DNA of 64,000 nucleotides from Spirochaetia bacterium (lineage in GTDB: Bacteria > Spirochaetota > Spirochaetia > SZUA-6 > Bin103): NCBI GenBank assembly GCA_965203905.1, contig CBDBDQ010000005.1, positions 4,960,001-5,024,000 on the forward strand. Direction: 5' to 3'. The first letter of the stretch is position 1; every line of letters starts with the position of its first letter. Shown here one piece after another: positions 19,926 to 56,126 of this stretch. Position numbers and translations under genes: made by a program. The notes under the pieces were generated by a model that saw only the letters and a program-made list of their open reading frames with translations, ran no database searches and was not told where the DNA came from.

Positions 19926-19942
19926 CATTCCCAGGAGGAGTC

Positions 19943-30004: not shown

Positions 30005-31927
30005 ATGAATAGAAAGGTATGGGTAACCATAACCGTTGCATTGCTGGCAAGCCTTGTGCTTGGATTCAATGCGTGGGCGTATAACGAATCGCCGATGCTG
30101 GCTGCTTTGGTAGCCAAGGGAGAGCTGCCGCCCGTCGACGAACGGCTGCCAATCGAGCCCCTGGTGAAAGTCGCGCCGGAGATCGGTCGCTACGGGGGCA
30201 CCGCCAGCAGCTTGTCGAGGAACTCCTGGCACGAAGGTGACCTTTTCGGATGGTGGCAGCAAGCCTCTACCCTGGAGGTCACACCAGACAGTCAAGTAGG
30301 TCCAGGCGTAGCGAAAGATTTTGAGCTGTCGGACGACCAGATGACGTTCACTCTCTTTCTGCGAGAAGGAATGAAGTGGTCGGACGGTGCGCCGTTTACC
30401 GCGGATGCCTACGTCTTCCGTTACCAGGATCTCGGTGTGAATCCAGACATGCCATGGGGGTATCGTAGCAACGAACCGATCGAGTCGATGACGGCCGTCG
30501 ATGACTACACGCTGCAGATCACGTTCAGCAAGCCTTATCCGAGGATTGTCATCAGCATGGCCAACGAGGATGGTGCCGACTGGAACCGGATACGGCCCAA
30601 GCACTACCTGAAAAAATGGCACCCGGATTACAACCCGGATGCCGACAAGATTTCCAAGGAAGAAGGGTTCGACAACTGGGGTCAGGCGATGGCCCACCAT
30701 GGCAACTGGAATTACGTCGTGGATCCGGATGTCCCGACGCTCCGACCTTGGGTGCTGCGCCAGGAGAGTGCCACTACCCGTCTCTACGAACGAAACGCAT
30801 TCTGGTATTGCGTCGACACTGCAGACAACCAGCTTCCCTACATCGACCGGGTGCAAGCCACGCTCGCGGATGGCGAAACGTACAAGCTGAAGGTCCTCAG
30901 TGGAGAGGTAACGTGGGCCAAGTTCCCCGCTTTCGAGGATTTTACGCTCTACAAGCAAAACGAGGCCAGCGGAGACTACAAGGTGCTGGTGCTGTCGGGA
31001 CTGTTTGGCGGTATGCACACCTATCACGTCAACCAGAACCATGAAGAGCCGGTTCTGGCCGAAGTCTTGCGTGATCTGCGATTTCGCAGGGCTTTGTCCC
31101 TGGCCATCGACCGCGATCAGATGAACGAAACTCTCTATAGCGGCATGGGTGTGCCACGACAGATTACGGTAAACCCGGATGTAAGCTACTACAAGCCTGA
31201 ATGGGGAGAGGAACATCCCTATGCCCGGTACGATCCGGATCAGGCTAACCAATTGCTCGACGAAATGGGTCTTACGGAGAGGGACAGAGACGGCTTCCGC
31301 AAGCTCCCGAACGGCGAAACCCTCAATATCACCGTGGTCTCCTACGGTATCTGGATAGCACCGGAAGGGGAGGAGCTGGTAAAGGAATATTGGGGAGATG
31401 TGGGTATCAAGAGCACCCTGAGACTCGTCGAACCCGGTTTCTTCTGGGATTACCGCGGGACCAACGAGTGGGTGATTTTCTCGGAACGGGCCACCGGTAC
31501 TGACGAGTTCTACACGGACGGTGATGCCGGCCGGATCGGCAATCCGCTGGGCGAGAACTGGGGCGCCAGTTGGAGTCAATACCTGCAAGCCAAGAGGGCG
31601 ATTGACGCGGGTATCAAGACCCTTGACGACTATGAAGGCGGGGTAATGCCCGGCGAGATGCCATCACCGCTGGTGATGGAGCTTTGGGACAATCTCATGA
31701 CCGCATACTCGTCGGTATTCGGTTCCGAGGAATACCGAATGGGTTACGAGAGGGCGTTCGAGATTTTCGCAGAGCAGTTGTGGGTAATCGGCACGGTGGG
31801 ACTGGTGCCCGACCTCAGAATTGCGAAGAACAACCTGGGGAACGCTACCCAGGAATGGTTCAATAGCCCGGGTACGGCAATCAACCGGTGGGGCCAGTAC
31901 GACTGGGCCCTTTACTTCAAGGAGTAA
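30005..31927 (+). CDS. ABC transporter family-5 substrate-binding protein
   Basis: Signal peptide; 'ESPMLA..V..GELPPVDERLP', 'LREGMKWSDGAPFTAD', 'NQLPYIDR', 'RFRRALSLAIDR'. Confidence 0.92.
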   Translation: MNRKVWVTITVALLASLVLGFNAWAYNESPMLAALVAKGELPPVDERLPIEPLVKVAPEIGRYGGTASSLSRNSWHEGDLFGWWQQASTLEVTPDSQVGPGVAKDFELSDDQMTFTLFLREGMKWSDGAPFTADAYVFRYQDLGVNPDMPWGYRSNEPIESMTAVDDYTLQITFSKPYPRIVISMANEDGADWNRIRPKHYLKKWHPDYNPDADKISKEEGFDNWGQAMAHHGNWNYVVDPDVPTLRPWVLRQESATTRLYERNAFWYCVDTADNQLPYIDRVQATLADGETYKLKVLSGEVTWAKFPAFEDFTLYKQNEASGDYKVLVLSGLFGGMHTYHVNQNHEEPVLAEVLRDLRFRRALSLAIDRDQMNETLYSGMGVPRQITVNPDVSYYKPEWGEEHPYARYDPDQANQLLDEMGLTERDRDGFRKLPNGETLNITVVSYGIWIAPEGEELVKEYWGDVGIKSTLRLVEPGFFWDYRGTNEWVIFSERATGTDEFYTDGDAGRIGNPLGENWGASWSQYLQAKRAIDAGIKTLDDYEGGVMPGEMPSPLVMELWDNLMTAYSSVFGSEEYRMGYERAFEIFAEQLWVIGTVGLVPDLRIAKNNLGNATQEWFNSPGTAINRWGQYDWALYFKE

Positions 31928-31941: not shown

Positions 31942-31988
31942 GGAATCATGGGGCAGCGGGTGGCTGTGTGCAGCCACTCGCTGCGTCC
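31942..31988. terminator. Hairpin after SBP gene, overlapping MFS 3' end; related to 16103-16155
   Basis: GCAGCGGGTGGCTG-tgtg-CAGCCACTCGCTGC. Confidence 0.55.
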
Positions 31989-33211
31989 GCACCCTGCTGG
32001 CCAGCGAGCTGACGGCGAGGGGTAAGCGCCCGCTTGCGCGACAGCATGAGCGCCGTCAGGGCTGACAGCCAGATGAGCACGGCGGCGAATACGTAGTTGG
32101 CGGTCATGCCGGACCCCTGCGCCAGCCAGCCCCCGATCGCGGGAGCGATGAAGCCGAGACCGTTCAACGTGTAGATGAATCCCACCGCTGAGGCCAGGGA
32201 CTCCTTGGCCGACCTGTCCGCGGCGGCGGTAAGGATGATCGGGCTGATCGGCATCGCCAGCCCCGCCACGGCCATCAGCAGGAGCAAGGCGGATGGCCAC
32301 GGGACGAGACCGATGAGGAGCGCAATCACGCCGGAGATGGCGAGTGGCACGAACAGGGCCGTCCGTGCTCCCCAACGGCTGTAGATGAGTCCCATCAGAG
32401 GCTTCGCGCCGACTCCCATCAGGAAATACAGGGTCAGCGCGATGCCGATGAGGGAGGTCTGCATGCCGAACCGATCGCTTGCCAGGAGAGGGAAGAAGCC
32501 GATCAAGGTCTTGGTCGCCATGCCCTTCAGGGCGTACACGAGCGCGAGCAGGACGATGTCCCGATTCCCGATCACCATGGAGGTGAGCATCCGGACACTC
32601 GACAGCGTGCGGCCGGTGGCGACGTTGGCCCGCTCGCCGCGGGGGAAGCGGATTCCGACCAGGGGCAGGATCAGCAGCGCCGGCAGCGTGCATACGGCGA
32701 GGGCCAGTCGCCATCCCGCGGCCGTGGCAACCACCGCCTGCACCACCGGCATGACAGCGGCACCCAGGTTGCCCATCAGACTGTGCAACGAGATGGCGAA
32801 GGCTCGACGGTGCCGAAACCGCTCCGCCGTGAGGGCGGTGCCGCACGGGTGATAGGCAGCGTTGCCGGCACCGGCCAGGAACGCCAGGACGGCGAGGGCG
32901 GTGAATCCGCCCGCCCACTGCATGGCGAAATAGGAGGCGGAGGCGAGGGCCAGCCCGACGATGAGAATGGTCCTCTTGTTGCCGCTGTGATCGGCGGCGA
33001 CCGAGAGCGGGTAGAGGAACAAGAACGTCGCCAGGCTGAAGATGCTGAGCAGTGTTCCCGTGCGCAGGGTCGAGAGACCGAGTTCGGCAACGATGAGGGC
33101 CAGTACCGGAACCAGCAGGTTCGAGTATCCGTCGCTGAGCCCATGGGCGGAGCCGATGAGCCCGAGGTCGAGCCAGTCGCCCCGGCGGCTCTTCGAGCCC
33201 GATTCGTTCAA
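31946..33211 (-). CDS. MFS transporter (Fsr-like)
   Basis: About 12 hydrophobic segments; 'AHGLSD', 'GAGNAAYHP', 'GNLG'. Confidence 0.88.
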   Translation of the reverse strand: MNESGSKSRRGDWLDLGLIGSAHGLSDGYSNLLVPVLALIVAELGLSTLRTGTLLSIFSLATFLFLYPLSVAADHSGNKRTILIVGLALASASYFAMQWAGGFTALAVLAFLAGAGNAAYHPCGTALTAERFRHRRAFAISLHSLMGNLGAAVMPVVQAVVATAAGWRLALAVCTLPALLILPLVGIRFPRGERANVATGRTLSSVRMLTSMVIGNRDIVLLALVYALKGMATKTLIGFFPLLASDRFGMQTSLIGIALTLYFLMGVGAKPLMGLIYSRWGARTALFVPLAISGVIALLIGLVPWPSALLLLMAVAGLAMPISPIILTAAADRSAKESLASAVGFIYTLNGLGFIAPAIGGWLAQGSGMTANYVFAAVLIWLSALTALMLSRKRALTPRRQLAGQQGADAASGCTQPPAAP

Positions 33212-33234
33212 CCGGCTATCCCCGGTTCAACCGA

Positions 33235-35544
33235 CTATCCCCGGCTGGGCCAGTTCAGGTGGCGGTGGAGGAAGTCGAAGGTGCCGACGCCGTGGATCGA
33301 GTGGGGGCCGTTGAACACCTCCATCTCGGTGCGGTCGCCGAGGCCCAGCAGGTCGTAGCGGCGGCGGGTCCGCGCGTACTCGTAGGCCACCCACTCGTCG
33401 GGAGCCACGCCGTCGTGGTGTCCGCGCTCGACCATGAAGGGACGCGGGCAGATCAGCCAGCTCATCTCCGCGTAGTTGAAGGTGTTGGCGAGGTCGAACT
33501 CGTACATGTCGTACTCGCCCGTGGTCAGATAGCCGCAGGGGTGACGCGCCGAGACGTTCTTCCAGACCCACTCGTTGTAGTCGGCGGAGCAGATGGACAG
33601 GCAGTAGCCGTCCAGCACCGCGGGGATTCTCATGGCCGTCTTGCCGCCGTAGCTGAGTCCGTAGAACGCGATGCGCGCGGGATCCACGAAGGCCAGCCCG
33701 GCGAGCCAGCGGAGCACACACTCGTGCTGGCGGACGATCACGGAATAGAGGGACTGCTGCAGGGGGTGTGACTTGCGCACCAGGACCCGGAACCGGTCTT
33801 CGCCGATGTAGGGATTCTGCGGCGCGAAGGTGATGAATCCGCGTTCGGCGAGGCGGCAGGCGAACTGGTGGTAGGTGTCGTTCTCGACGTTCGGGTCCGC
33901 GGTGTCCTGGGGGCGGCCTTCCAGTCCGTGCTGGCACACCACCACCGGCCGGCGCTCGCCGCGCCGGATCCCCTCGGGAACCAGGAGAATGCCGTACGCG
34001 AACACCTCGGGATAGAGATCCAGGACCACTTCGTAACCCTTGAATCGGGAGGTCTCGTAGACCAGGCGGGTGCGCGGATGGGGCGCCGACTCGGCATCCG
34101 GCGAGCGCCCCAGGAGTTCCTCTTCCATGTAGGCGCGGTACCAGGCGCAGCTTCTGCGCCATGCCTCGGGGTCGGATTCGTCGGCGCGGGACCAGAACTC
34201 TTCGCGCCGGTACTGCGACTCGCGCATGAGATGCTGAGTGTCGTCCATGAGCTGCCTGAGCTGCCGCTTCATCCGCGCCGCGGCGTCCGTGGACGAGCGC
34301 ATGCGGCCGGGCGCGGGCGCGGCCACCGCCAGGGAGCGGGCAGTGCCGAGCGCCCGCAGGAACGACGCCAGCGCCGGTTCGCTGCCGGGCAGACCCTGTC
34401 CGTCGCCGCTTCTCACGCAGCGGAAGTCAGGGGCGGGGTCAAGCCCGGCCACGAGCCCCCGAGCGCGCTCGAATTCCCGCTCCACCGCCGTGACCTCCGG
34501 CGTGTCGATGACTCCGGGCGCCGCGCTGGCTTCCCGGTCCGGTGTGGGAGCGGGCGGCCCTGCCACCTCCGGGTGCCGGCAAGCCTCCACCACCAGGGCG
34601 CGGGGCGCTATCAGGCCGGCGAGCTCGGCGTCGCCGAACTCGATGAGCAGCGACCAGACGTTGCGGTAGATGGGCTGCCGCCATAGCGTGTCCCGGGGGC
34701 CGAAGTACCCGGCGACTCCGGCAGCCCGGATCCTTCGATCCACCGCCGCGGCGAACAGCGCGACGAGCCCGCCCTCGCCGTAGCCGAACACGCCGAGCGG
34801 CTGCCGGCCGTGCTCCCGGATGAGCCAGTCCGCGGCCGCCAGCAGCTTCTGGACTTCGTAGCCGATGATGTGCCGGCCCAGCTCGTAGGCGGCGCGATAC
34901 ACGAACTCGCGGTGCGGCTGGTTGGTCATGCGGAAGCCCTCGACACCGGACCACGTGTCGCGGCGGTCGATCAGCACGGGGACCACCACGCGGCATCCGT
35001 TCTCGGCCAGGCGCCGGGGAAACTGCGCGTCCGCGGGCACGCCGGGCTCCAGGCCGCAGGCGGCCTCCGGGGTCCAGTCGCAGTCCGGCAGCGCCACCAC
35101 GTTGGCCACGGCCGGCCCCGACGGCTGCAGCAGGAGGCCTTCCCCCTCGATCCCCCGAAACACGTTCCAGCGCACCCGCTCGACCCGGTATCCCGCGCCT
35201 TCCGCGACCAGCACCGGCTGCCGGTGGGTTGCCAGCAGGTGCATCTCCACCTCGTCGCGCCGGTCCACGAGGCCGATGATATTGCGCAAGCGCTGCCGTC
35301 TGGCCGCGACCGACGACTCGTAGGCCTCGGGGCTCGTGACGTCGCGCTGCCACCGACCAGGCCGGCGGTCCACCACGGCCTGGAGCTGGCGCGCGAGGAA
35401 GCGATCGATCCCGGCAACCATCTGCGCGGCCAGGTCGCCGGGCAGCGCCAGCGGGGCGGTGCCCGGCAGAGGCCGGGCATCGGCGCCGGCTCCCGCTTCG
35501 GTGGCCGGTCCGTCGCGGCGGTCTGGTGCACTCCCGTCGTCCAT
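33235..35544 (-). CDS. Two-domain alpha/beta hydrolase (dienelactone hydrolase/esterase-like)
   Basis: C-domain 'VVCQHG', 'VDPARIAFYGLSYGG', 'ERGHHD', 'FNGPH'; N-domain 'GVFGYGEGG' lacks the Ser. Confidence 0.75.
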   Translation of the reverse strand: MDDGSAPDRRDGPATEAGAGADARPLPGTAPLALPGDLAAQMVAGIDRFLARQLQAVVDRRPGRWQRDVTSPEAYESSVAARRQRLRNIIGLVDRRDEVEMHLLATHRQPVLVAEGAGYRVERVRWNVFRGIEGEGLLLQPSGPAVANVVALPDCDWTPEAACGLEPGVPADAQFPRRLAENGCRVVVPVLIDRRDTWSGVEGFRMTNQPHREFVYRAAYELGRHIIGYEVQKLLAAADWLIREHGRQPLGVFGYGEGGLVALFAAAVDRRIRAAGVAGYFGPRDTLWRQPIYRNVWSLLIEFGDAELAGLIAPRALVVEACRHPEVAGPPAPTPDREASAAPGVIDTPEVTAVEREFERARGLVAGLDPAPDFRCVRSGDGQGLPGSEPALASFLRALGTARSLAVAAPAPGRMRSSTDAAARMKRQLRQLMDDTQHLMRESQYRREEFWSRADESDPEAWRRSCAWYRAYMEEELLGRSPDAESAPHPRTRLVYETSRFKGYEVVLDLYPEVFAYGILLVPEGIRRGERRPVVVCQHGLEGRPQDTADPNVENDTYHQFACRLAERGFITFAPQNPYIGEDRFRVLVRKSHPLQQSLYSVIVRQHECVLRWLAGLAFVDPARIAFYGLSYGGKTAMRIPAVLDGYCLSICSADYNEWVWKNVSARHPCGYLTTGEYDMYEFDLANTFNYAEMSWLICPRPFMVERGHHDGVAPDEWVAYEYARTRRRYDLLGLGDRTEMEVFNGPHSIHGVGTFDFLHRHLNWPSRG

Positions 35545-35546
35545 CG

Positions 35547-38500
35547 TTACTCCTCGCCCACCGTGAGCTGCCCCACGCTCGACTTGCCGAACTCCGGCCG
35601 CGCCACCCACCACGGCCCGTCCGCCTCCAGGCGGAGCCGCTCACCGCGGAACTCGGCCCTGGCAATCGCCTTGCCGTCAGCGCCGCGGAGACGGAGCTCC
35701 ACCTGGCCGAACCCGTGCAGATCCAGGCTCCGGCCGGCGTCCGCCGCGGAGGGCTCGACGTGCACCCGCGGGTCCGCGACCAGGACGGTCAGTCCCGGCG
35801 TGGACAGCACCGTGCTCAGCCGGCCTTCCTCCACGGTGAGCGGCAGCCACTCCCCACCCAGCCGCAGCCGGCACCCGCGCCGGCCCCGGGCCTCCGTCCA
35901 GTCGGTGTTCAGCAGGTGCACGGTCGTGACCTCGCTGTCGGGCTCCTGGCGCACGGTGTAGTAGACGTCGCCGCTCGGGTCTTCCAGCTCCACCGGCGCC
36001 TCCACCTGCCCGGCCAGGCCGTGGATGAGGTCGGTCATCAGCGGCGCGAGGAAGGAGTTGCCGGGGTAGTCGTGGGTCAGCAGGACGTACACCACGCCGC
36101 GTCCCACGCGGTGGCGGACGACGACCGGCTCGCCCGTGGCCTCGTCGCAGGCGAGCACTTCCGCACCGGCCAGCTCGACCGCCTCCCGGCACACCAGCGG
36201 GTGCCGCGGCTGCACCGGCGGGCCGTCCTCGCCGGCGTAGCGGTACACCTTTCCGGCGGCGAGCGGGTTGTCGCGGGCGGCGAGCACCCGCACCGCGGAC
36301 AGCCGCTCGGCCTTGCCCCTGGCGCGCACCCCCAGGAGATCGGCGAAGTCGCCGTCCCGCAGCAGGTTCAGCGACTCCAGGTCTTCCAGCAGGAACGTGC
36401 GCGACTCGTTGGTGGTGAGGTGAGGGATGCCGAGGAACAGGGTGCCGCCGCCCTTCACGTATTGCACCATGCGCCGGTAGCTCTCCTCGTCGGCGGTGTT
36501 CCACCCCAGCAGCATGAGGAGCTGGAACTCCGACCACACTTCCGCCGGGGCTGCGATCGGAATCAGCTCCAGCTCGCCGTAGGGAGTGCCGGAGTACCAG
36601 CGCCGCACCCGCTGCGGACTCTGCTCCAGCGTGTGCAGCCAGACCCCGGGAAAGAACACGTCCAGGTAGCGCAGCCCGTACTCCGGTGTTGAGGGCCGCC
36701 ATTCCGGAGTGTTCGCGCCGCAGAAGCGCCAGACCATCGGGGGAATGCCCTGCCGGCGGCTGTCGGCGAGGCCGTCCGCCAGGTCGCAGGCGAAGCGGCC
36801 CGTCAGCAGCGCCTGCCTGACCCGCGGCTGACCGCGGCGCGGATGGCTGCGCACGAAGCGGTGGAACTCCCGCAGGATCTCCTGCCGCCGGCGCGGGAAC
36901 CGGTCGCCCAGGCTGTACAGCCGCTCGTGGTAGTTTCGCAGCAGGGACTCCTCGTCGTTGACGAAGGAGGAGCCCGCGATGTAGGCGAGGTAGATGGAGA
37001 GCCACCACATGCGCAGGGTGTCGTCGCCCTCCGGGTGCTTGTGGGCGCCCTCGGCGATGTAGGTGCCCCACACCGGCCGCCGCCAGGCCCGCGCCGCGCC
37101 GCGCGCGTCGGCCAGCAGCAGCACGTTGTGCATCTTGTTGAACTGCGCCGAGCACAGGTCCGCGCCTGCCGCGTAGGAGTGGCCGTGGCACAGCACCGTG
37201 ATCATGTCCACGACGTCGGTGCCGGGATCGCGCTCCTTGACCAGTGCCAGGAGGCCCTTGCGGAAGGCCACGTAGGCCTCGTGCGCGGTGCGCATGGTGC
37301 GTTCGGCCTCCGGGGTCTCCTGCTTCACCGGGGCGATCTCGTAGCCGAACAGCGGGCCGTCGAGCTCGGTGAGCATCCAGCCGGCGAAGAACGGCCCGCC
37401 CTCGCGCTTGGCCGCGATGGTCCACCGCGGCGGCACCACGTGCGCCATCATGAAGTGGATGCCCAGTTTCCGGCACAGCCGGGCGAGGGAAACGGCGTGC
37501 GCCTCGTCCCGCACCTTGCGGAACACGCAGTAGTTGCCCAGCCCGGTCTCCGCCAGGAGCCGCAGGCAGCGCTCCAGGTATCCCGGCGGGCGCCACGGCA
37601 GCGCGCAGGTCTCCATGCCCACCCGCATCGGAAACGCCTCGGCCTCGGTGCCCACCACCTGCGCGATGCCCGCTTCGCTGCTCACCTGGTCGGCGCAGAA
37701 GCGGAGCCTGGCGTCGGCCAGGGGCTGCTCGGCGCGCACCCGGAGCCGGTGGTCGCCGGCGCCCAGTTCCGCGGGCAGCTCGGTGAGCGCACGCAGGCCG
37801 TCCGGAAGCTGCGCGCGCACGCCGCGCAGCGTGCGCCTGGCCGACAGCTCGATCGCGAACTCTTCGCCGAGCCGGACCCAGGACGGGCACCGGCTGACCT
37901 CCAGGTCGCGCCGCTCCGTCTCCTCCAGAAACACCCTGCCCAGCAGGAGGTAGTCCCGCTGCCCGCCGTCGCTGTGCAACCGCAACGTGTTGCTCCCGGC
38001 CTGGAACAAGTCCCGCGGCAGGTCGACGACGATCTCCTCCATCATGGGATGCCGGTACTGTTCCCAGAAGGGCTGCCAGCCCTCGCTGATGTGGTGCTCG
38101 TTGAAGGAGACCCGGTACTGCAGGCAGGTGTTCCTGCCGTCCTCGCCGACCTGCTGCGGCGGGTCCCCGGCCCGGTCCGGCACGGCCGCGTTGCAGCGGA
38201 AGGTGGCGCGTACCACCCGGCTCACGCCCGGCTCGTCCGCGCCCCAGTCGGGCTGCTGGAACGAAACCTCGGCGCCGCGGCCGGGAGCGATCCAGACCCA
38301 GTCGGTCCGGTTCCAGCGGTGCACGGGACCCCTGATGGAAGCCGCCTCCATGAAGTCGCGCCAGCGCCCGTCGCCCCGGGTCATCGCGGCGATCTCCTCG
38401 GGAGTGTCGAGGTTCGTGTCATGCCCATCGAGCAGGGCCGTGAGGTCGACATTGCTGTAACGGAACCCGACGTGCCGGCTGATCTGCCTGCGGGCGGTGA

Positions 38501-38825
38501 TCTCGGCGATGCTGAAGCGCAGCGTGGCGGCCTTGGTGCGCACCTCCACCACCGTCTCCGGCCCGCCTTCCACCTCGAACAGCACCCCGCCGAAGCGGTA
38601 GCGCGCCGAATCGGCGTGCCAGTGCCAGAACGGCCGCTCCAGGGGGATCTGCTTCTCCCAGCACGGCGTCCCGGGCCCGTGCAGGCGCAGCAGGGAGCAG
38701 CGCACGACCCTGCCGCCGGTGACGAACACGCCGCCGTCCCAGCAGTAGTCCTCGTGGTGGAACGGCTGCTGTGCGTACATCATGTAGTAGCCCCAGTGCA
38801 CTCTCAGGGCGTGGTTCTCGGGCAC
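35547..38825 (-). CDS. Large hypothetical protein (1092 aa), putative glycoside-hydrolase-like; paralog of 50380-53787
   Basis: Long ORF with coding-like codon bias, co-oriented in an operon, conserved blocks shared with the paralog. 'YVKGGGTLF' and 'PVVVRHRVGRGVVYVL' resemble the GH42 trimerisation domain. Confidence 0.75.
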   Translation of the reverse strand: MPENHALRVHWGYYMMYAQQPFHHEDYCWDGGVFVTGGRVVRCSLLRLHGPGTPCWEKQIPLERPFWHWHADSARYRFGGVLFEVEGGPETVVEVRTKAATLRFSIAEITARRQISRHVGFRYSNVDLTALLDGHDTNLDTPEEIAAMTRGDGRWRDFMEAASIRGPVHRWNRTDWVWIAPGRGAEVSFQQPDWGADEPGVSRVVRATFRCNAAVPDRAGDPPQQVGEDGRNTCLQYRVSFNEHHISEGWQPFWEQYRHPMMEEIVVDLPRDLFQAGSNTLRLHSDGGQRDYLLLGRVFLEETERRDLEVSRCPSWVRLGEEFAIELSARRTLRGVRAQLPDGLRALTELPAELGAGDHRLRVRAEQPLADARLRFCADQVSSEAGIAQVVGTEAEAFPMRVGMETCALPWRPPGYLERCLRLLAETGLGNYCVFRKVRDEAHAVSLARLCRKLGIHFMMAHVVPPRWTIAAKREGGPFFAGWMLTELDGPLFGYEIAPVKQETPEAERTMRTAHEAYVAFRKGLLALVKERDPGTDVVDMITVLCHGHSYAAGADLCSAQFNKMHNVLLLADARGAARAWRRPVWGTYIAEGAHKHPEGDDTLRMWWLSIYLAYIAGSSFVNDEESLLRNYHERLYSLGDRFPRRRQEILREFHRFVRSHPRRGQPRVRQALLTGRFACDLADGLADSRRQGIPPMVWRFCGANTPEWRPSTPEYGLRYLDVFFPGVWLHTLEQSPQRVRRWYSGTPYGELELIPIAAPAEVWSEFQLLMLLGWNTADEESYRRMVQYVKGGGTLFLGIPHLTTNESRTFLLEDLESLNLLRDGDFADLLGVRARGKAERLSAVRVLAARDNPLAAGKVYRYAGEDGPPVQPRHPLVCREAVELAGAEVLACDEATGEPVVVRHRVGRGVVYVLLTHDYPGNSFLAPLMTDLIHGLAGQVEAPVELEDPSGDVYYTVRQEPDSEVTTVHLLNTDWTEARGRRGCRLRLGGEWLPLTVEEGRLSTVLSTPGLTVLVADPRVHVEPSAADAGRSLDLHGFGQVELRLRGADGKAIARAEFRGERLRLEADGPWWVARPEFGKSSVGQLTVGEE

Positions 38826-38840
38826 GAGGTTATGGCTCCG

Positions 38841-39971
38841 TCAGCGCTGGTACGGGTCCGCGGCATCGCGCAGCCCGTCACCCAGAAAGTTGAAGCTCAG
38901 CACCACCACGATGACGAGCAGGCCCGGCAGCAGCAGCCACGGCGTGTGGTACAGCGTGCGTATGTTCTGCGCGTCCTGCAGCAGCACCCCCCAGCTCACG
39001 GTGGGCGGCCGCAGCCCCAGCCCGATGAAGCTCAGCGCCGTCTCCCCCAGGATCATCCCGGGTATGGACAGGGTGACGTTGACGATCAGGTAGCTGAGGA
39101 ACGACGGCAGCAGGTGGCTCACGATGGTCTTGAGCTCGCCGGTGCCGGCGATCCGCGCCGCCATCACGAAGTCCTCCTCGCGGGAGGCGATCAGCTTGCT
39201 GCGCACCGTCCGCGCCAGCCCGGGCCAGCCGAACAGGGACAGGATCACGGTGATGCCGAAGTAGACTCTGAGCTGGGGCCATTCCGGCGGCAGTGCCGCG
39301 CTCAGGGCCATCCACAGGGGCAGCGTGGGAATCGACACCAGGAAGTCGATGACGCGCTGGATGGCCATGTCCACGGGCCCCCCGAAGAATCCCGAGATGC
39401 CTCCCAGCAGACAGCCGAGAATGAAGCTCAGCGCGACACCGATCAGCCCGATCGAGAGGGAGATCCGCATCGCCGAGACGGTCCGCGACATCAGGTCGCG
39501 CCCCAGCGGGTCGGTACCGAACAGGTGCAGCGTGCCGTCAGCGATGCCGACCAGGTGCAGGTCGCTCTGGACCAGGCCCCACATCTTGTATTTGTCGCCG
39601 CGCACCAGGAAGCGGATGGGATGCACCTTCTCGGGATCGGGCGTGTAGATCCTGCGCCACGTGACCGGATCCTCGCTCACCTGCAGGCCGTAGACGAAGG
39701 GTGCGCGCAGCCTGCCCTGGTCGAAGAACCGGACTCTCTGCGGCGGCGCGTTGATGAGGTCCTCGTCGCGCCTGGTGACACTCTGCGTCGCGAAGAACTC
39801 GGCGAAGAGTGCAATGAGGTACAGGCAGAGCAGCAGGATGCCCCCGCCCATGGCGAAGCGGTGCCGCTTGAGCTTGCGCCACATGAGCTGCCACTGCGAG
39901 GCGATGAAGAGCGCCTCGGCCGCTGTCGTGGTCGTTTCGTCCGGGTGTTCGGTCGGCAGGGTTTCGTTCAC
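38841..39971 (-). CDS. Dpp/Opp-type ABC permease (DppC-like)
   Basis: 'FGTDPLGRDL', 'ETALSFIGLG', 'GDGLRDAADPY'. Confidence 0.92.
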   Translation of the reverse strand: MNETLPTEHPDETTTTAAEALFIASQWQLMWRKLKRHRFAMGGGILLLCLYLIALFAEFFATQSVTRRDEDLINAPPQRVRFFDQGRLRAPFVYGLQVSEDPVTWRRIYTPDPEKVHPIRFLVRGDKYKMWGLVQSDLHLVGIADGTLHLFGTDPLGRDLMSRTVSAMRISLSIGLIGVALSFILGCLLGGISGFFGGPVDMAIQRVIDFLVSIPTLPLWMALSAALPPEWPQLRVYFGITVILSLFGWPGLARTVRSKLIASREEDFVMAARIAGTGELKTIVSHLLPSFLSYLIVNVTLSIPGMILGETALSFIGLGLRPPTVSWGVLLQDAQNIRTLYHTPWLLLPGLLVIVVVLSFNFLGDGLRDAADPYQR

Positions 39972-39974
39972 GGC

Positions 39975-40967
39975 TCAGTTCGTCTTCTCGTAGCGGATGC
40001 GGGGGTCCACGATCACGAGCAGTATGTCGGATACGAAGGACCCGATGATGGTAAGAAATGCGAGCACCATCACGGCGCTCCCGGCCAGGTACATGTCCAG
40101 GCTGGTGAGCGCCGACAGGATCAGCGGCCCGATGGTCGGCAGGCTCAGCACGATCTCCACGATGGCACCGCCTGAGACGATTCCCGGCAGCATCCAGCCG
40201 ATGGTGCTGACGATGGGGTTGATGGCAATCCGTATCGGGTACTTGAAGAGCAGCTTCTGCTCGTCCAGGCCCTTGGAGCGGGCGGTCACGACGTAGGGTT
40301 TGCTCAGCTCGTCCAGCAGGCATCCCCGCATCACCCGGATCAGGCCCGCGGTGCCGGCCAGGGCCTCTACCACGATGGCAACCACGAGGTGCTTCATCAT
40401 GTCCAGGACCTTGTCGACGCTCCACTCCGCCAACTGGTATTGGGGCGAGAACAGCCCGCCGGCGCCGAACCCCAGCGTGTTCTCGAGCAGCAGCATGAGC
40501 GCCAGGGCCAGCAGGAACCCGGGGGTGGCGATTCCCATGAACCCGACCACCGTGAACGCGTAGTCACCGATGGAGTACTGGTGCGTCGCCGAGTAGATCC
40601 CGATGGGGACGGCGATGGCGTACACCAGGACGGTGGCGAGAAGGTTGATGGCCAGGGTGAGGGGCAGCCGCTCCATGATCAGGTCCGCCACCGGCTGTTC
40701 GAACTTGAAGGATCTTCCCAGGTCGCCCTGCAGCATGCGCCACACCCAGCCCAGGAACTGCTGCACCGGTGGCTGGTCCAGGCCGTAGAGCCGCTTCAGG
40801 GACTCGATCTCGGCCTCTGCCACGACCTGTCCCTGCGCCATGAGCTGGGCGACCTTGATGTCGACGTAGTCCGAGGGCGGGAGCTGGATGATGATGAAGG
40901 AAACGATCGAGATCACCACCATGAGAATGATCATGTAGAAGAAGCGCCTTATGGCGTATCCGACCAT
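39975..40967 (-). CDS. Dpp/Opp-type ABC permease (DppB-like)
   Basis: 'YGLDQP', 'GDLGRS', 'YVVTARSKG', 'VDPRIRY'. Confidence 0.92.
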   Translation of the reverse strand: MVGYAIRRFFYMIILMVVISIVSFIIIQLPPSDYVDIKVAQLMAQGQVVAEAEIESLKRLYGLDQPPVQQFLGWVWRMLQGDLGRSFKFEQPVADLIMERLPLTLAINLLATVLVYAIAVPIGIYSATHQYSIGDYAFTVVGFMGIATPGFLLALALMLLLENTLGFGAGGLFSPQYQLAEWSVDKVLDMMKHLVVAIVVEALAGTAGLIRVMRGCLLDELSKPYVVTARSKGLDEQKLLFKYPIRIAINPIVSTIGWMLPGIVSGGAIVEIVLSLPTIGPLILSALTSLDMYLAGSAVMVLAFLTIIGSFVSDILLVIVDPRIRYEKTN

Positions 40968-41070
40968 CTATCCGGCGTCCCTCCCTGCGTATCGCCTCGA
41001 AACCGCCGCCTCGCGGCACCGCCTTCGGCCCAGCCCCACCCACCGTACGGAGCCCTGCTCCTGTGCCGCC

Positions 41071-41101
41071 GCCCGGGCGGCGCAACGGCCGCCGCCCGGG
41101 C
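41071..41101 (-). terminator. Stem-loop after SBP gene
   Basis: GCCCGGGCGGCG-N7-CGCCGCCCGGGC, 12-bp stem. Confidence 0.6.
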
Positions 41102-41105
41102 AACG

Positions 41106-43094
41106 TCAGGTTATTGCATCAGGTAGAGCTGCTCGGGATGGGAACGCGGTCATCTGCTTGAGACCGTCGCCCCAGACCCCGACCTCCGGATGGTTCCCGA
41201 GCCGGTTGCTGACCAGGATCGGCTTCTTGCCGACCACGGTGCCGATGATCCAGAGATTCTCCGCCTGGGAGCGGAAGACTTCCCTGAGGATCTCCGTCCG
41301 CCGGTCCTCGTCGAAGGTCTGCTGCAACTCCCCGGCCAGCTCTTGCAGCCGCACGATCTCAGTGAAGGGATACTCGTCCGGCGAGAATTCCGGGGGCCAC
41401 TCGCCACCCGAGTTTGCCGGCGGCAGCAGCGGGGTGTCGAAGTAGCGCGCGCCGTCGGTGAAGGCATACCACGAGAGACCGTTGCCGCCGCTGGTCAGCC
41501 CGAAGGCGTCGGACTTGTCGACAAAGAGCGCGAACATGTGCGACTCGCCGCTCTGGTGCAGCGGATGGGTGATGCCCCAGTCCTGGACCTTGAAGTTCAC
41601 CTTGATGCCGATGGCCTTCCAGTCCTCGATCACCAGCTCCGTGACCTTGTTGGACAGGCCTACCGGCCCGCTGATCACGAGGTACTCGAACGGATTCCCG
41701 TCCGGTCGCAGCCGCCACTCGTTGTTGGCGTCCCACTTCATTCCCATCTCGTCCAGGAGACGATTGGCCTCCGCAACATCGTGCTCGGCGTAGGCGTCGC
41801 GGAACGACTCGTCGAACCAGGGAGCGCCGGGCAGGGCGGTCGGCTGGCCGACGACGCCGCGGCCGAAGAACAGGGTCTTGTTGATGGACTCGCGGTTGAT
41901 CGCCAGCGACAGCGCCATGCGGAACCGCTTGTCGTGGTTGATGCTCGCGATCACCGGATCCTTCGGGGTCAGGTTCGGGAAGTAGGCGGCGTCGGACGAG
42001 CCGTCCTGGTCCCACAGCAGGACCCGGTAGTTGCCCCCCTGCGCGCCCTCCTGGTACACGGAGTAGTTCGACAGGTCGGAGCCTTCGCCGTGCCAGTCCG
42101 CCTCGCCGGCCAGCATCTTGGCCGTGAGCAGCTCCGTGTTCTCCACGCTGTTGACCTGGATCTGGTCGATGTACGGAAGCTGGTTGCCGGCCGGGTCGAC
42201 CTTCCAGTAGAAGGGATTCCGCTCGTACAGCGTGGTGCCGGTTGCCACCTGCTTGGTGATGAAGGAGTCCAGCGAGGGCATGTCCGGGTTGATGTAGGGG
42301 TTACGGGAGCTGGCCCGTTGTCTCTGATCCCCGAGCAGCTGAGTCCAGTTGTCGAACCCGCCGTCCTTTACCATCTCGTCGAGCTTGCCCTTGTCCGCGT
42401 AGTCGGCGTGGAACTGCTTGAGGTAATGGGCCGGAGCGAACATGTTGCCGTCCAGCAGGGACATGTAGGAGAGCACGGGCTGGAACGGGACCGCAAAGTC
42501 CATCTGGATCGTGTGGTCGTCCACCTTGGTCCACTTCATGACCTCGCCGCCCGGCATCAGGCGGTTGTTGATCCGGGACGTGACTTCCTCGTTCAGCAGG
42601 AGATCATCGTACCAGAACATCATGTCGTCCGCGCTGAACGGGGCGCCGTCCGACCACTTCATGCCGTTGCGCAGCGTCACGGTAAGGGCCTTGCCGTCCG
42701 GCGCGAACACGTAGCCCTCGACCACGTTCGGTATCAGCGTCTTCAGGTCCTCGGCCACGGCGAAGAGGCCCTCGGTGCCCTTCAGGCTGTAGCCTTCGCC
42801 GATGCCCACCATGGCAAGGGCCATGGCGTAGGCCGTCCCGCCGTACTGCCCGATGCCATCCACCGGAACCACCACTACACCGTCAGTGGGCAGCCGGTCC
42901 TCCACCGCGGGCAAGTCCCCCGCGGCCACGCGCGCCGCCAGCATGGGCGACTCCTGGAAGCTCGAGATCATGTTCCCCGACATCCTCTCGTACTCGTCCA
43001 GGTTGTGCTGCTCGGCCAGTCCGGTGGGGGCGGCGAAGGCCGCCATGCCTCCCAGCAGGCCGAAACACGCACAGACAACCAGTATCCTTTTCAT
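41106..43094 (-). CDS. ABC transporter family-5 substrate-binding protein (probable +1 indel near 3' end)
   Basis: Signal peptide MKRILVV..; 'ESPMLA', 'GMKWSDGAPF', 'GNQLPYID', 'RFRMALSLAINR'. Confidence 0.9.
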   Translation of the reverse strand: MKRILVVCACFGLLGGMAAFAAPTGLAEQHNLDEYERMSGNMISSFQESPMLAARVAAGDLPAVEDRLPTDGVVVVPVDGIGQYGGTAYAMALAMVGIGEGYSLKGTEGLFAVAEDLKTLIPNVVEGYVFAPDGKALTVTLRNGMKWSDGAPFSADDMMFWYDDLLLNEEVTSRINNRLMPGGEVMKWTKVDDHTIQMDFAVPFQPVLSYMSLLDGNMFAPAHYLKQFHADYADKGKLDEMVKDGGFDNWTQLLGDQRQRASSRNPYINPDMPSLDSFITKQVATGTTLYERNPFYWKVDPAGNQLPYIDQIQVNSVENTELLTAKMLAGEADWHGEGSDLSNYSVYQEGAQGGNYRVLLWDQDGSSDAAYFPNLTPKDPVIASINHDKRFRMALSLAINRESINKTLFFGRGVVGQPTALPGAPWFDESFRDAYAEHDVAEANRLLDEMGMKWDANNEWRLRPDGNPFEYLVISGPVGLSNKVTELVIEDWKAIGIKVNFKVQDWGITHPLHQSGESHMFALFVDKSDAFGLTSGGNGLSWYAFTDGARYFDTPLLPPANSGGEWPPEFSPDEYPFTEIVRLQELAGELQQTFDEDRRTEILREVFRSQAENLWIIGTVVGKKPILVSNRLGNHPEVGVWGDGLKQMTAFPSRAALPDAIT

Positions 43095-43269: not shown

Positions 43270-43560
43270 CTAGCGTCCGTGGTAGGGGTCGGCGGCGGCG
43301 CGCAGCCCGTCGCCCAGGAAGTTGAAGGCCAGCACCGCCAGGATCACGCACAGGCCGGGGATCATGAGCCAGGGGTGCAGGGCCACCGAGCGAATGTTCT
43401 GGGCCTGCTGCAGCAGCACTCCCCAGCTCACCGCGGGCGGCCGCAGGCCGATTCCGAGAAAGCTCAGGACGGTCTCGCCGAGGATGGTCGCGGGCACCGC
43501 CAGCGTGACGTTCACGATCAGGTAGCTCATGAAGGAGGGCAGCAGGCGGCGGCGAATGGT
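43270..43560 (-). pseudogene. 3' fragment of a DppC permease
   Basis: 'LLPSFMSYLIVNVTL...GDGLRAAADPY'; 5' three quarters of the gene are absent. Confidence 0.85.
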
Positions 43561-43677
43561 ATGCGCCGCACTCCTGCCGGCCGGGCTGACACGCACGCCT
43601 CGGGCGCAGGGATCGGTCTCCGCAGTGCGCGAGCGTGTAGTCCCTCTGCGATGTCCGCTCCGGAGACGCCACTGCGC

Positions 43678-45213
43678 TCACGTCACCGAATCCCGCGGTG
43701 CGGCATGCTGCCGGCGCTGGTGGCGGTAACGGTGGTGAGCTGCGCAGCGCAAGACCAGGTTCCCGGGCTCCGCACCACCGCCCACCGCGACCGGAACGAT
43801 GTGGTCCATCTCGAGAAAGAAGCGCGAGCCGCAGCGCCGCCCGCTGTCCCGGTCGACGAAGGTGCAGCAGCTCTGGTCGCGCCGCCAAACCTCTCGTTTC
43901 ACCGCCGCCGGAATCGATCTGCCCGACGAGCCGCGGGACTTCTTCACCGAAGGAAGCTCCCCTGCGCCGCCGGCCCTCGGCTCCGGTATCGAGCTGCCGG
44001 TTGCCACATGGGACTTCGCCGCCGAAGTCGGCTCCGCCGATTCTGCACCGTCGGTGGTCCGCTCCGGAATCGAATCGCTAGCTGCCACCCGCGGCTTCGC
44101 CGCCGAAGTCGGCTCGTTCGCCTCCGCGCCGCCGGCGGTGCGGCCGTGATGTGCCGGCGGCGCAACCCACTTCGGCGCCGAAGCACGGCTACCCGGCGGC
44201 GGCCCGAGGCGTCTCTTGGGCGAAGCTTCCCCCGAGCCTCCGCCTGCTGGCGTGGCCGGCGAAGTGCCGGCTGCCGTCGGCTTCGCGGACCGCTTCGTGG
44301 CGGACGGAGACGTCGTCGGCGCCGCGGACTCCTCGGCCCGGCGCGGGTTCTCCACCGCAGCCGCAACGCGATCCGCCGTCTCCCGCCCCGCTGTCCCGGA
44401 CGGACGCTCGCCACCCGCCGAGTCGGACTCCCGCTTCCGGCGCCGCGGCCGGCTCGGGTCGTAGCGCTCCAGTCCCTCCCGCACCAGCCGCCCGACGAGT
44501 TGCCCGACCGTCAGGTGCGGATCCACGTGCGACAGCAGCTCCCGCAACTGCTGCAGTCCCTGCTGGCACTCGGCGTCGATCACCGCCTTCAGCTCCCAGC
44601 GCCCGTCCCCCAGCGCGCGCAGCCGGTCGCCGGGCACCGCCGCCTCGGGATCCACCTCGGCCAGCATCTGCTGCACCTGCCGCGTGCTCTTGCCCACCGC
44701 CTGCTCCACCAGTTGCTGCCGGGCGTGCGCATCCAGCACCGGCGATGGCGCACCCTGCGCCTCGCCCGGCGTCGCGGATGGAGCCGAGCCGGCACGCGGC
44801 GCGGCGCTGGTGCCGGCTCCCGGCGACCCGGTGGCGGTCCGTCCGCCTGCGCTGCGGTCCCAGCGCTCGAAGGAGTTCTGCAACAGGGCCGCGTTGCTCA
44901 GGTTCAGCGAGCCGTCCTGCAGCCACTCGCGGACGCCGCGGGTCTCGCGGCACAGGCGCATGGCCTTGATACGCCGCCAAGCGGCTGCCTCGGTATAGTG
45001 CAACTCGCGCACGGTGTAGTCGAACAAGCTGGAGTAGCCGAGGCGCAGATACAGGCGCCGGGCCTCGATCTCGCGCAGGTGGTCGAGGACGCTGAGCTGC
45101 AACGCCTGCTCGTGGCGGGCGAGCATTCTGGTCCGCTCCAGCAGGACTTGGTCGGGTAGCACGGCAACGGTGGAGAGGAGCTCTTCGGAGGCTGCTTCGG
45201 TCACGTTCGTCAT
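43678..45213 (-). CDS. HNH endonuclease with N-terminal helical (DUF222-like) domain and repetitive linker
   Basis: 'RLYLRLGYSSLFDY..REL.YTE..A.RRI'; C-terminal 'IP..VKREVWRRD..CC...C......DHIVP...GG.....NL.L.C..HH'. Confidence 0.88.
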   Translation of the reverse strand: MTNVTEAASEELLSTVAVLPDQVLLERTRMLARHEQALQLSVLDHLREIEARRLYLRLGYSSLFDYTVRELHYTEAAAWRRIKAMRLCRETRGVREWLQDGSLNLSNAALLQNSFERWDRSAGGRTATGSPGAGTSAAPRAGSAPSATPGEAQGAPSPVLDAHARQQLVEQAVGKSTRQVQQMLAEVDPEAAVPGDRLRALGDGRWELKAVIDAECQQGLQQLRELLSHVDPHLTVGQLVGRLVREGLERYDPSRPRRRKRESDSAGGERPSGTAGRETADRVAAAVENPRRAEESAAPTTSPSATKRSAKPTAAGTSPATPAGGGSGEASPKRRLGPPPGSRASAPKWVAPPAHHGRTAGGAEANEPTSAAKPRVAASDSIPERTTDGAESAEPTSAAKSHVATGSSIPEPRAGGAGELPSVKKSRGSSGRSIPAAVKREVWRRDQSCCTFVDRDSGRRCGSRFFLEMDHIVPVAVGGGAEPGNLVLRCAAHHRYRHQRRQHAAPRDSVT

Positions 45214-45225: not shown

Positions 45226-45757
45226 CTACTGAATTGAAAATACCACGACCTTCCAGGTCTCGGACGGGCTTCGGAGATGGCTCAGGACGGGCGTAGCAGG
45301 GCGCTATCGAGCCAGCGGGCGCGAAGTGTTCTCTGGAGAGTCGGAAGCGCCACCACGGCCCGTAGAGGGCCGTCATGAGCGCGTCAGAGTGCGTCAAGCG
45401 TTTTCTTTGTTTTCTTGCGAATTTCTGGGATTCTTTCGGATCGTCAGCCTGCAGCACCGGCCGGGACATCTGCCGCACCGCCGCCTGCTGCGATGCCGTC
45501 AGAGCCGCCTGGACGTTCACGGCAAAGACCTCCCGCCACGTCCGAAACGAAAAGGGTGCGGCTCTTTTAGGACGACCTCTATCTTCAGTTTGATGCGTTA
45601 ATTGGGGGTTCTGTCGGACGCCCGGCGCTGGTTCAGCGGCATACGCTTGGGGAACGGGGCCATAGGCTGCCACGTATCGTGCTGGCGGGCATAGCAAGGG
45701 CTGGACAAAACCCACCACGACTCGGTACGGTGCCTCCGTTGTCAGCGGAGGGTGCCG

Positions 45758-54357: not shown

Positions 54358-54985
54358 GGGCCAGGGCGAAGCGTACCTGCTGTGCACCTGGGCCTATCCC
54401 GGCAACTCGTGGCTCAAGCCCCTGGTCGACGACATCCTGCATGCCCTGGCCGAGACGGTGCCCGAGTCGGTGGCGCTGGAGGAGGGCACCGGCGACGTGT
54501 ACTACACGGTACGGATGGAATCGGCACGCTCTGGCACAGGGATGGTCCGCCCGCCGGACCAGGACCACGAGGTGTGCCGGGTCCATCTCCTGAACACGGA
54601 TTGGACGGCGGCCGGAAACGAGAAGGCGTGCCGCCTTCGCCTTGGCACAAACCGCGTCGACATCAAGATCGGTGAAGGTCGACTGAGCGAGATCGTGTGG
54701 GCCGGTCCGCTGGCGTTCCTGGTCGAGGACCCCAAGGTCCACGTGGCCGGGCTGGCACGGACGGCCGGCGGGTACACGGCCGCGGTGCACGGATACGGGC
54801 GCGCCGAGATCGCCCTGCAGGCCCTGGACGAGCATCGCCTCGGCGCGGTTACCTGGCGCGGGCGCCCCGTGAGCCTGGAGCCCGAGGCCGGCTGGACGCG
54901 CGCTCGATTCGACTTCGCGGACCGCAGCACGGGACAGCTCGCAGTCGGGGTCTTGTTGTGACCTGCTGAAATCCAAGACCCCGTG
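54358..54985 (+). pseudogene. Diverged duplicate of the 3' end of the 1135-aa gene (53178-53810)
   Basis: About 630 bp direct repeat, in frame to its stop at 54961 and extending ~24 bp beyond. Confidence 0.88.
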
Positions 54986-56091: not shown

Positions 56092-56126
56092 GCTAGCGCA
56101 CACCGGACGCCGCTATTCCATTATTA

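Follow-up and report, generated by a model that had tools for sequence, protein, structure and literature searches.

What does a large protein of no recognised family do in an operon built around an importer of the peptide type? We addressed this question for a locus within a 64,000-nt stretch of DNA from a Spirochaetia bacterium, which we call the window; all coordinates are window positions unless contig C5 is named. Six co-oriented genes on the minus strand run here from 43094 to 31946. They encode a family-5 solute-binding protein (SBP_bac_5), two Dpp/Opp-type permeases, a protein of 1092 amino acids (aa) that we call P0001, a two-domain alpha/beta hydrolase (P0003) and a transporter of the major facilitator superfamily (MFS). 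We propose, at a probability of roughly 0.6, that P0001 is a glycosidase-type enzyme, predicted to act on imported oligosaccharides together with an esterase.

Gene layout of the operon

An earlier reading of the DNA letters (the sequence-only reading) had described a co-oriented importer run with short gaps, and both the gene order and the coordinates hold. The first gene (41106-43094, minus strand) encodes the binding protein, which is exported and 662 aa long (Pfam SBP_bac_5, E 1.1e-50). Its longest open reading frame (ORF) opens at a GTG at 43142, and the likeliest true start is the ATG at 43094, from which the protein has the signal-like N-terminus MKRILVVCACFGLLGGMAAFAAP. There follow an ABC permease of the DppB/OppB type with 330 aa (39975-40967, minus strand; BPD_transp_1 E 1.2e-23, BPD_transp_1_N E 1.3e-11) and one of the DppC/OppC type with 376 aa (38841-39971, minus strand; BPD_transp_1 E 7.3e-29, OppC_N E 7.4e-15). 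The gene for P0001 (35547-38825, minus strand) precedes that of the 769-aa hydrolase (33235-35544, minus strand), whose likeliest start is the ATG at 35544, 2 nt past the stop of the 1092-aa gene. A 421-aa MFS transporter (31946-33211, minus strand; MFS_1 E 2.6e-45) is encoded by the final gene of the run.

From these coordinates, the intergenic gaps in the operon are 138, 3, 15, 2 and 23 nt. The GC content at third codon positions of the operon frames is 0.85-0.94, as expected of real genes in a window with 65-70% GC. A sigma-70 promoter scan returned 0 sites, and the 8 terminator-like sites found against 3.5 expected are uninformative.

P0001 begins with VPENHALRVHWGYY and has no hydrophobic signal-like leader, in agreement with the earlier statement that the large protein lacks a signal peptide. 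A full-length paralog of 1135 aa, P0002, is encoded on the plus strand at 50380-53787. The two proteins align from end to end with 506 of 1118 positions identical (45%, E = 0), far beyond chance, and the ten motif blocks that the sequence-only reading had listed as shared between them are all readable in this alignment. Directly upstream of P0002 lies a gene for a 281-aa protein with a signal-like N-terminus and weak RHS/YD-repeat matches (49538-50383, plus strand), the stop of which overlaps the P0002 start by 4 nt. The same pairing of a 281-aa protein with a paralog is repeated in another family locus, L047 (81% identity). Just downstream of P0002, the last 183 residues of the large protein have a counterpart in a fragment at 54359-54949 (plus strand; 47% identity, E 2.5e-38). 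Further large-protein fragments are found at contig C5:5665650-5666383, one of them with two TAG stops.

Predicted fold of P0001 and its likely kinship with GH42

The sequence-only reading had taken P0001 for a member of an undescribed family, and Pfam, NCBIfam and PDB sequence searches gave no strong full-length match to a characterised one. The Pfam scan of P0001 yielded a single sub-threshold match, to the trimerisation domain of glycoside hydrolase family 42 (GH42; PF08532, E 0.0014, 18.6 bits against a cut-off of 25.8). NCBIfam matched neither P0001 nor P0002, and a phmmer search of the PDB found nothing for P0001 at E <= 1 and nothing for P0002. A profile of the family compared with the PDB sequences made only the trimerisation domain detectable (5xb7, E 0.002). 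PF08532 matches 25 of 33 full-length family members at E <= 0.05; the alignment of these 33, hereafter A1, was also used for folding P0001. The GH42 catalytic domain, PF02449, matched neither P0001 nor P0002 at E <= 0.01 and none of the 33 members at E <= 0.05; the same model does find two true GH42 genes in this genome. Across the 33 members, Pfam returned no family for the N-terminal 395 residues, none for the barrel described below and no domain of GH2.

The AlphaFold2 model of P0001 is confident, with a mean predicted local distance difference test score of 88.7 and a predicted template modelling score of 0.90. Residues 1-395 (37641-38825, minus strand) are all-beta, with almost only strands assigned by DSSP, which bears out the beta-rich N-terminal domains of the sequence-only reading. 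The TIM barrel that this reading expected is also present: eight alternating strand-helix units form a (beta/alpha)8 barrel over about residues 396-690 (36756-37640, minus strand). The units lie at 401-675 and their strands at 401-405, 432-435, 457-461, 480-485, 538-542, 557-562, 587-590 and 621-624. The barrel is followed by a middle domain of the GH42 trimerisation (GATase-like) type at about residues 691-942 (36000-36755, minus strand), which is indicated by PF08532 in relatives, by the profile match to 5xb7 and by the region aligned with hhalign, and which contains an alpha/beta domain at about residues 740-940 of the model. P0001 may form trimers. The C-terminal region, residues 943-1092 (35550-35999, minus strand), is a beta-sandwich with only strands in DSSP (945-1091), and the part up to about residue 1010 aligns with domain C of GH42 and GH164.

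A Foldseek search of the PDB with this model, one of the checks called for by the sequence-only reading, placed the GH42 structure 5xb7 first (E 4.5e-17), with further GH42 structures (4oif, 3tts, 5e9a and 8ibr) among the leading matches. The others were archaeal GH35 exo-beta-glucosaminidases (5gsm, 6jow, 8oug), a GH35 beta-1,2-glucosyltransferase (7vkz) and GH164 (6t5o). The E-values of the leading matches range from 4.5e-17 to about 1e-13 and their identity to P0001 is 9-13%. VIA-align, which is independent of Foldseek, superposed GH42 1kwk on the model range 400-1008 (Z 19.5, root-mean-square deviation (rmsd) 3.9 Å, 475 residues) and GH164 6t5o over 515 residues (Z 19.4). GH5 barrels reached about Z 17 over the barrel part only.

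Sequence profiles extend this likeness beyond shape. Aligned by hhalign with 13 GH42 proteins from genomes of the same order, A1 matched with 97% probability (E 8.9e-11), and residues 513-997 paired with GH42 positions 224-653, a match that spans barrel strands 5-8 and both later domains. This supports P0001 as a remote homologue of GH42. The GH42 enzymes of known structure (1kwk, 5xb7, 4oif and 3tts, beta-galactosidases and an alpha-L-arabinopyranosidase) share with P0001 the barrel, the GATase-like trimerisation domain and the beta-sandwich (VIA-align Z 17.6-19.5 over 475-509 residues); in both, strand 4 is followed by a Glu and strand 2 by an Arg. They differ from it in that the structure-based identity is only 12-14%, P0001 has no PF02449 match and its 395-residue all-beta N-terminus is extra. 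GH42 enzymes are cytoplasmic and are found in importer loci, a setting that is also predicted for P0001.

The same GH42-type architecture is found in the GH164 beta-mannosidase Bs164 (6t5o) and in archaeal GH35 enzymes, namely the exo-beta-glucosaminidase GlmA and IaSGT (5gsl/5gsm, 6jow, 8oug, 7vkw). VIA-align Z scores are 19.4 for 6t5o, 15.4 for 7vkw and 14.8 for 5gsm_B, and Foldseek E-values are 1e-16 to 1e-13; the GLMA_2nd domain of Pfam is weakly matched in relatives. However, identity to these enzymes is 9-12%, no sequence-level match extends outside the middle domain and they lack the N-terminal extension. GH2 enzymes also carry beta-sandwich domains ahead of a clan GH-A barrel. GH2 beta-glucuronidases align from about residue 152 on, and one 639-aa relative has a precomputed PF02837 match; yet the rmsd is 13.8-14.1 Å and the domains do not superpose as a unit. 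On balance, we favour the view that GH42, GH164, archaeal GH35 and the P0001 family have a common origin and a common domain order, from the barrel through the trimerisation domain to the beta-sandwich.

A large and unnamed family with a patchy distribution

A word-indexed search of 5.8 billion proteins returned 39 matches to P0001, none with a name given by its source. An exhaustive profile search of 1.84 billion representatives yielded 912 matches at E <= 1e-3, 649 at E <= 1e-10 and 357 at E <= 1e-30. Many of these representatives are 620-730 aa long and correspond to no more than the barrel with the two domains that follow it. In a Pfam scan of nine of the shorter ones, the middle domain (GH42M or GLMA_2nd) was all that was recognised, apart from a single CBM9 and a single weak DUF4350, and a profile of 25 shorter relatives found only trimerisation domains among the PDB sequences. 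A search seeded with the Victivallis vadensis protein gave 371 matches, of which the best 120 were listed; every source name given among these is "hypothetical protein", and none of them carries a precomputed Pfam domain. Cluster look-ups, and a look-up of the homologue P0015, led only to hypothetical-protein clusters, and literature searches that included full text found no description of the P0001 family. Judged by Pfam, NCBIfam, PDB sequences, source names and the literature, the family is large, with hundreds of clusters, and unnamed.

Scanning one genome per species gave 65 family loci. The closest, L044, encodes a protein at 90% identity. Five loci at 42-46% are from metagenome-assembled genomes (MAGs) of Kiritimatiellia, Verrucomicrobiota and Zixibacteria and from two further contigs of the MAG that holds L044 (L047 and L048). 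Many full-length relatives at 24-36% identity occur in Lentisphaeria, Victivallales (including V. vadensis DSM 14823, L056) and Clostridia. The genome of the window has five intact full-length paralogs as well as fragments. At E <= 1e-10, none of 300 other sampled genomes of the phylum contained the family, and of 60 relatives a single one did, a congener. Within the genomes searched the distribution is patchy, which is not the same as absence.

Candidate catalytic residues and a clade-specific swap

Enzymes of clan GH-A carry their acid/base after strand 4 and their nucleophile after strand 7 of the barrel. By modelled strands and conservation, the clade of P0001 has carboxylates after the same two strands. 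E487 (37365-37367, minus strand) lies two residues after strand 4 and is present in all 33 members of A1, and E592 (37050-37052, minus strand), two residues after strand 7 (587-590), is present in 29 of them. E625 (36951-36953, minus strand), one residue after strand 8, and R436 (37518-37520, minus strand), which follows strand 2, are again found in 33/33. The Glu residues that the sequence-only reading had singled out as candidates are therefore conserved. Two further positions are of interest, Q561 in strand 6 (37143-37145, minus strand) and Y589 in strand 7 (37059-37061, minus strand). The whole constellation R436/E487/Q561/Y589/E592/E625 is kept by all five full-length paralogs of the genome, P0002 included.

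For the wider family, we aligned the 150 best representatives using the model of the family. E487 is retained in 100 of the 104 sequences that align there, and the figure for E625 is 113 of 122. Position 561 is Glu in 106/116 and position 589 is His in 80/117, where P0001 has Gln and Tyr. The states at 487/561/589/592/625 within A1 are E-Q-Y-E-E in 29 members, E-Q-Y-G-E in one and E-E-H-V/T-E in the three most distant, a near-perfect co-variation. We also built a FastTree phylogeny of 110 members (residues 400-999, at least 80% coverage, midpoint-rooted). The 41 tips with Gln561 form one clade without exceptions (support 0.96), and the 37 tips with Glu592 are nested within it (support 0.987), with one Gly592 exception. 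These patterns suggest that one point of the active site may receive its carboxylate from either of two places, strand 6 in most family members and the loop that follows strand 7 in the P0001 clade.

The partner hydrolase resembles carbohydrate esterases

The sequence-only reading had predicted a de-acylating esterase as partner of the large protein, and the predicted structure of the hydrolase agrees with this. Its AlphaFold2 model (mean predicted local distance difference test score 79.2) has two alpha/beta-hydrolase domains. The N-terminal one (about residues 100-404) matches generic hydrolases at Z 15-17.6 in VIA-align and has GYGEGG at the nucleophile elbow, with Gly in the place of the nucleophile. 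The C-terminal domain (428-769) superposes best on BF1801, a "putative acetyl xylan esterase" (3nuz; Z 28.4, rmsd 3.0 Å, 314 residues), followed by the methylesterase BT1017 (6goc; Z 24.4) and OtCE15A of carbohydrate esterase family 15 (CE15; 6syr, Z 23.5). Nine CE15 structures in all lie at Z 19.4-23.5 over 273-307 residues, the eight besides 6syr at 19.4-21.0. The same domain reaches Z 16.6 with dipeptidyl peptidase IV (DPP IV) and 15-17 with generic alpha/beta hydrolases, and Foldseek agrees with the esterase likeness.

Ser631 (33652-33654), in the motif GLSYGG, is invariant in 30 sequences, as are His748, Asp711 and Asp716. The C-terminal domain combines the CE15 fold with a Ser-His-acid set, in which Asp711 or Asp716 is the candidate acid. 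With CE15, BT1017 and BF1801, on which 290-314 of its residues superpose at an rmsd of 3.0-3.6 Å, it shares the nucleophile elbow with Ser and the His. It differs from them in its identity of 16-17% and in the additional N-terminal alpha/beta-hydrolase domain of the 769-aa protein. The nucleophile motif of CE15 is GCSRxG, in contrast to GLSYGG here. The Pfam GCE model PF22244 did not match the hydrolase at E <= 0.01, but a few homologues carry a precomputed match. Taken together, the modelled fold and the invariant residues support a role as de-acylating esterase, and we lean toward a uronate-ester chemistry.

The hydrolase family is strongly conserved and has at least 8000 matches. Among those listed, identity is 59-67% outside near relatives at 84-92%, the phylum labels include Acidobacteriota, Poribacteria, Latescibacteria, Omnitrophota and Actinomycetota, and the only source name is "dienelactone hydrolase". 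The sole other genomic copy of the C-terminal domain (26% identity) follows a true GH42 gene (707-aa ORF, PF02449 E 1e-34) at contig C5:2978250-2981422 (L019). A GH42-type enzyme is therefore paired with this type of esterase-like domain twice in this genome.

An importer that probably shares its ATPase

The genome has at least 135 SBP_bac_5 (PF00496) matches (133 of 203 candidates scored) versus 63 matches to the ATPase domain oligo_HPY (PF08352), the nearest of which listed is at contig C5:4951386, outside the window. As binding proteins outnumber ATPases, we infer that ATPases must be shared. Most binding-protein/permease sets of this genome, our operon included, come without ATPase genes of their own; examples in the window are at 41106-43094 and 30005-31927. 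ABC importers of the Opp/Dpp family that carry oligosaccharides have been described in Thermotoga. There, as here, a family-5 binding protein and OppB/OppC permeases are encoded beside glycosidase genes, here a predicted one; the difference is that our operon lacks the ATPase genes OppD and OppF.

Neighbourhoods of relatives point to carbohydrates

Conservation of the neighbourhood across genomes, which the sequence-only reading had named as a check, held in one near relative. The order binding protein, DppB, DppC, large protein and hydrolase recurs in L044, with amino-acid identities of about 80-94%, up to the end of that contig within the hydrolase gene. The other 64 loci do not have it. Because tblastn found the operon partners in L044 only, we gave up the idea of a large protein constantly accompanied by this importer and this esterase.

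Other members of the family have carbohydrate-related neighbours. Within the genome, paralog 3 is directly downstream of a GH106 alpha-L-rhamnosidase and is accompanied by a CUT1 binding protein and two adjacent permease-sized ORFs. Paralog 4 adjoins a GH78 rhamnosidase and a protein with a 2OG-Fe(II) oxygenase domain, and paralog 5 adjoins an FG-GAP repeat protein. The oxygenase-domain protein (811 aa; L017 12173-14608, contig C5:3587172-3589607; domain E 1.4e-8) is not homologous to the 769-aa hydrolase at E 1e-10. For distant members, we took the two nearest ORFs on each side in 31 loci, 120 in total, and scanned the 117 that remained after the three longest were dropped. Pfam assigned AraC to nine of these, LacI-type, GntR and GFO_IDH_MocA to six each, GH95 and DUF4838 to three each, and polysaccharide deacetylase, GDSL, BNR_2 and PhyH to two each. 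The context of the family is carbohydrate catabolism without a fixed partner. The rhamnosidase neighbours and the uronate-esterase-like partner suggest oligosaccharides that contain rhamnose and uronate and are esterified, and we take such a substrate as a lead.

Sequencing runs with near-identical sequence bear the labels of sponge, coral or marine metagenomes. Contigs from X15-X18, four metatranscriptome runs that belong to three studies, match every operon gene at 90-99% likeness. These cover 30 of 30 bins in X15 and 22-27 of 30 in the other three runs, so that some operon parts are uncovered in some runs. One 2232-nt contig (X16, record 15) spans the junction between the binding-protein and first-permease genes. 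The contigs establish presence and are compatible with transcription, which is not proof of a transcript unit or of its level.

Proposed route and its alternatives

In the route that we propose, the family-5 binding protein would capture an oligosaccharide on the outside of the cell, and the two Dpp/Opp-type permeases would import it with the energy of an ATPase from another locus. Once in the cytoplasm, the oligosaccharide would lose an ester, most plausibly on a uronic acid, to the CE15/BT1017-like C-terminal domain of the hydrolase. The barrel of P0001 would then cut the glycosidic bond, with Glu487 as general acid/base and Glu592 as second carboxylate, either nucleophile or base, while Arg436 and Glu625 might hold the sugar. 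P0001 probably represents a new glycosidase family of clan-GH-A-like type, set apart by the unusual arrangement of its carboxylates and by its N-terminal extension. A more detailed version of this proposal is less probable, and we offer it tentatively. It would have the P0001 clade found a new GH42-related family with a relocated second carboxylate (from Glu in strand 6 and His in strand 7 to Gln, Tyr and a Glu after strand 7). Together with the tandem CE15/BT1017-like esterase and the peptide-type importer, this enzyme, multiplied five-fold, would provide a marine invertebrate-associated bacterium with an intracellular route for esterified rhamnose/uronate oligosaccharides.

Several points weigh against a glycosidase that works with this importer and esterase. 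Unrelated TIM barrels reach about Z 15 in VIA-align, so that the barrel alone says little and the three-domain match carries the weight. A comparison of the barrel alone with GH42 by hhalign gave a non-significant probability of 1.6%, which concerns above all the first barrel half, and the equivalence of E487 with the GH42 acid/base depends on strand position and on this weak alignment, in which E487 falls on the Glu of the GH42 Asn-Glu motif. No ATPase gene is present in the operon between 31946 and 43094, and L044 is the only one of 65 loci in which the partners accompany the large protein. The hydrolase belongs to a very large family across phyla and therefore occurs independently of the large protein. 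The RNA-library contigs come from related strains and may contain DNA. As to the active site, hhalign puts the nucleophile Glu of GH42 on Tyr589, and Glu592 is three residues further on. The Asn that precedes the acid/base Glu in the GH42 alignment consensus is replaced here, mostly by Thr or Ser (Thr in 12, Ser in 12, Gln in 3, His in 3 and others in 3 of the 33 members). Position 592 is mostly hydrophobic or small in the wider family, without Glu in most sequences, and the chemistry may therefore differ from that of classical clan GH-A enzymes. Because the GH42 catalytic model does not match P0001 and the position of its nucleophile is only putative, we did not file P0001 as GH42.

These active-site differences could also mean that the same fold performs another chemistry, with P0001 as a transglycosylase, a glycoside phosphorylase, an inverting enzyme or an enzyme with substrate-assisted catalysis rather than a classical retaining hydrolase of clan GH-A. 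The GH35 beta-1,2-glucosyltransferase (7vkz/7vkw) is among the best-matching structures, the GH42 nucleophile position is Tyr here and most often His among the representatives, the Asn before the acid/base is absent, and the conserved carboxylates of the wider family follow strands 4, 6 and 8, not 4 and 7. Yet in P0001 and most of A1, E592 is placed in the loop right after strand 7, at the clan GH-A nucleophile site, and the neighbouring genes are hydrolases and esterases of catabolic loci. Considering further that no phosphorylase-type or nucleotide-sugar signature was seen, we regard another chemistry as unlikely.

P0001 could also belong to a family that CAZy already holds, such as a recent GH family that has neither a Pfam model nor a structure. 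New clan GH-A families with a GH42-like architecture have been created recently, GH164 (PMC7105311) among them. However, neither the family profile nor that of the 25 shorter relatives matched PDB sequences outside the trimerisation domain, and no catalytic-domain model of Pfam or NCBIfam matches. The source names given among the matches listed are all "hypothetical protein", and the full-text searches found no describing paper. An existing classification is, in our judgement, slightly less likely again than a different chemistry.

A glycosidase supplied by a peptide-type importer also has to be set against a true peptide system, in which Dpp-type import would be followed by an S9-type peptidase and the large protein would be non-glycosidic. 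The families SBP_bac_5 and DppB/C are classically associated with the transport of peptides or nickel, and the best NCBIfam matches of the importer proteins are Opp4A and NikA, although far below the cut-offs. The best PDB sequence match of the hydrolase is dipeptidyl aminopeptidase 4 (E 3.9e-5), its motif is GLSYGG, and the window has two genes of the S15 X-Pro dipeptidyl-peptidase family at 9325-13085. In structure, however, the C-terminal domain of the hydrolase is much nearer to carbohydrate esterases (Z 23-28) than to DPP IV. The large protein has its homology to GH42, and its paralogs stand beside rhamnosidases and sugar-type CUT1 importers. The binding proteins of the SBP_bac_5 type would also be more numerous than peptide uptake alone plausibly needs. 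We consider a peptide system very unlikely.

It is most improbable of all that P0001 is a non-catalytic scaffold or binding protein, as might be supposed from the lack of Glu at the classical nucleophile position, given that charged residues at the C-terminal face of the barrel are invariant across 25-90% identity, that five intact paralogs are kept in the genome and that RNA-library contigs are present.

Other features of the window

Between the operon and P0002, a DruA-like ORF (PF14236, E 6.6e-46, 301 aa) is directly followed by a 537-aa ORF without a Pfam match (45752-48271, plus strand). Five copies of the pair, 99-100% identical at the amino-acid level, are present in the genome, one of them with an interruption in the DruA-like ORF, and these near-identical copies suggest a mobile element resembling an insertion sequence. 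Six more DruA-like copies in the genome are at 43% identity. A C-terminal fragment of a DppC-like permease (43270-43677, minus strand) is directly downstream of an ORF with an HNH endonuclease domain (43678-45213, minus strand). The stretch between the operon and its paralog looks disrupted by mobile DNA.

A second carbohydrate-type locus extends from 55006 to 61962. It comprises a PhyH dioxygenase (55006-56091), of a type also counted twice near distant members of the P0001 family, an Abhydrolase_7/AXE1-like hydrolase (56626-58359, minus strand), a DUF3502 binding protein (58477-60108) and two weak permeases (60132-61962) with BPD_transp_1 below the Pfam cut-off. The region 2408-21337 encodes a Metallophos/PHP protein, a sarcosine-oxidase-like pair (GCV_T with 2Fe-2S domains, and DAO), an HD-domain protein and a CUT1 binding protein with a permease. 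An IS110-family transposase is located at 19874-21337.

Implications for the family and its hosts

If activity is shown, P0001 would define a new glycoside hydrolase family of several hundred sequence clusters, whose members at present bear no annotation beyond hypothetical protein. Gut Lentisphaeria, Victivallales and Clostridia carry the family widely, as do marine symbionts, and proof of activity would fill a blank in the maps of glycan degradation by gut and marine microbiomes. The swap from Glu, His and a variable residue to Gln, Tyr and Glu is a natural experiment on the migration of a catalytic carboxylate within a TIM barrel. A concrete substrate hypothesis that can be tested comes from two observations taken together, the CE15/BT1017-like esterase encoded next to P0001 and the rhamnosidases encoded next to its paralogs. 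Finally, the very large set of family-5 binding proteins suggests that importers of the peptide type may be broadly used for sugars in this lineage.

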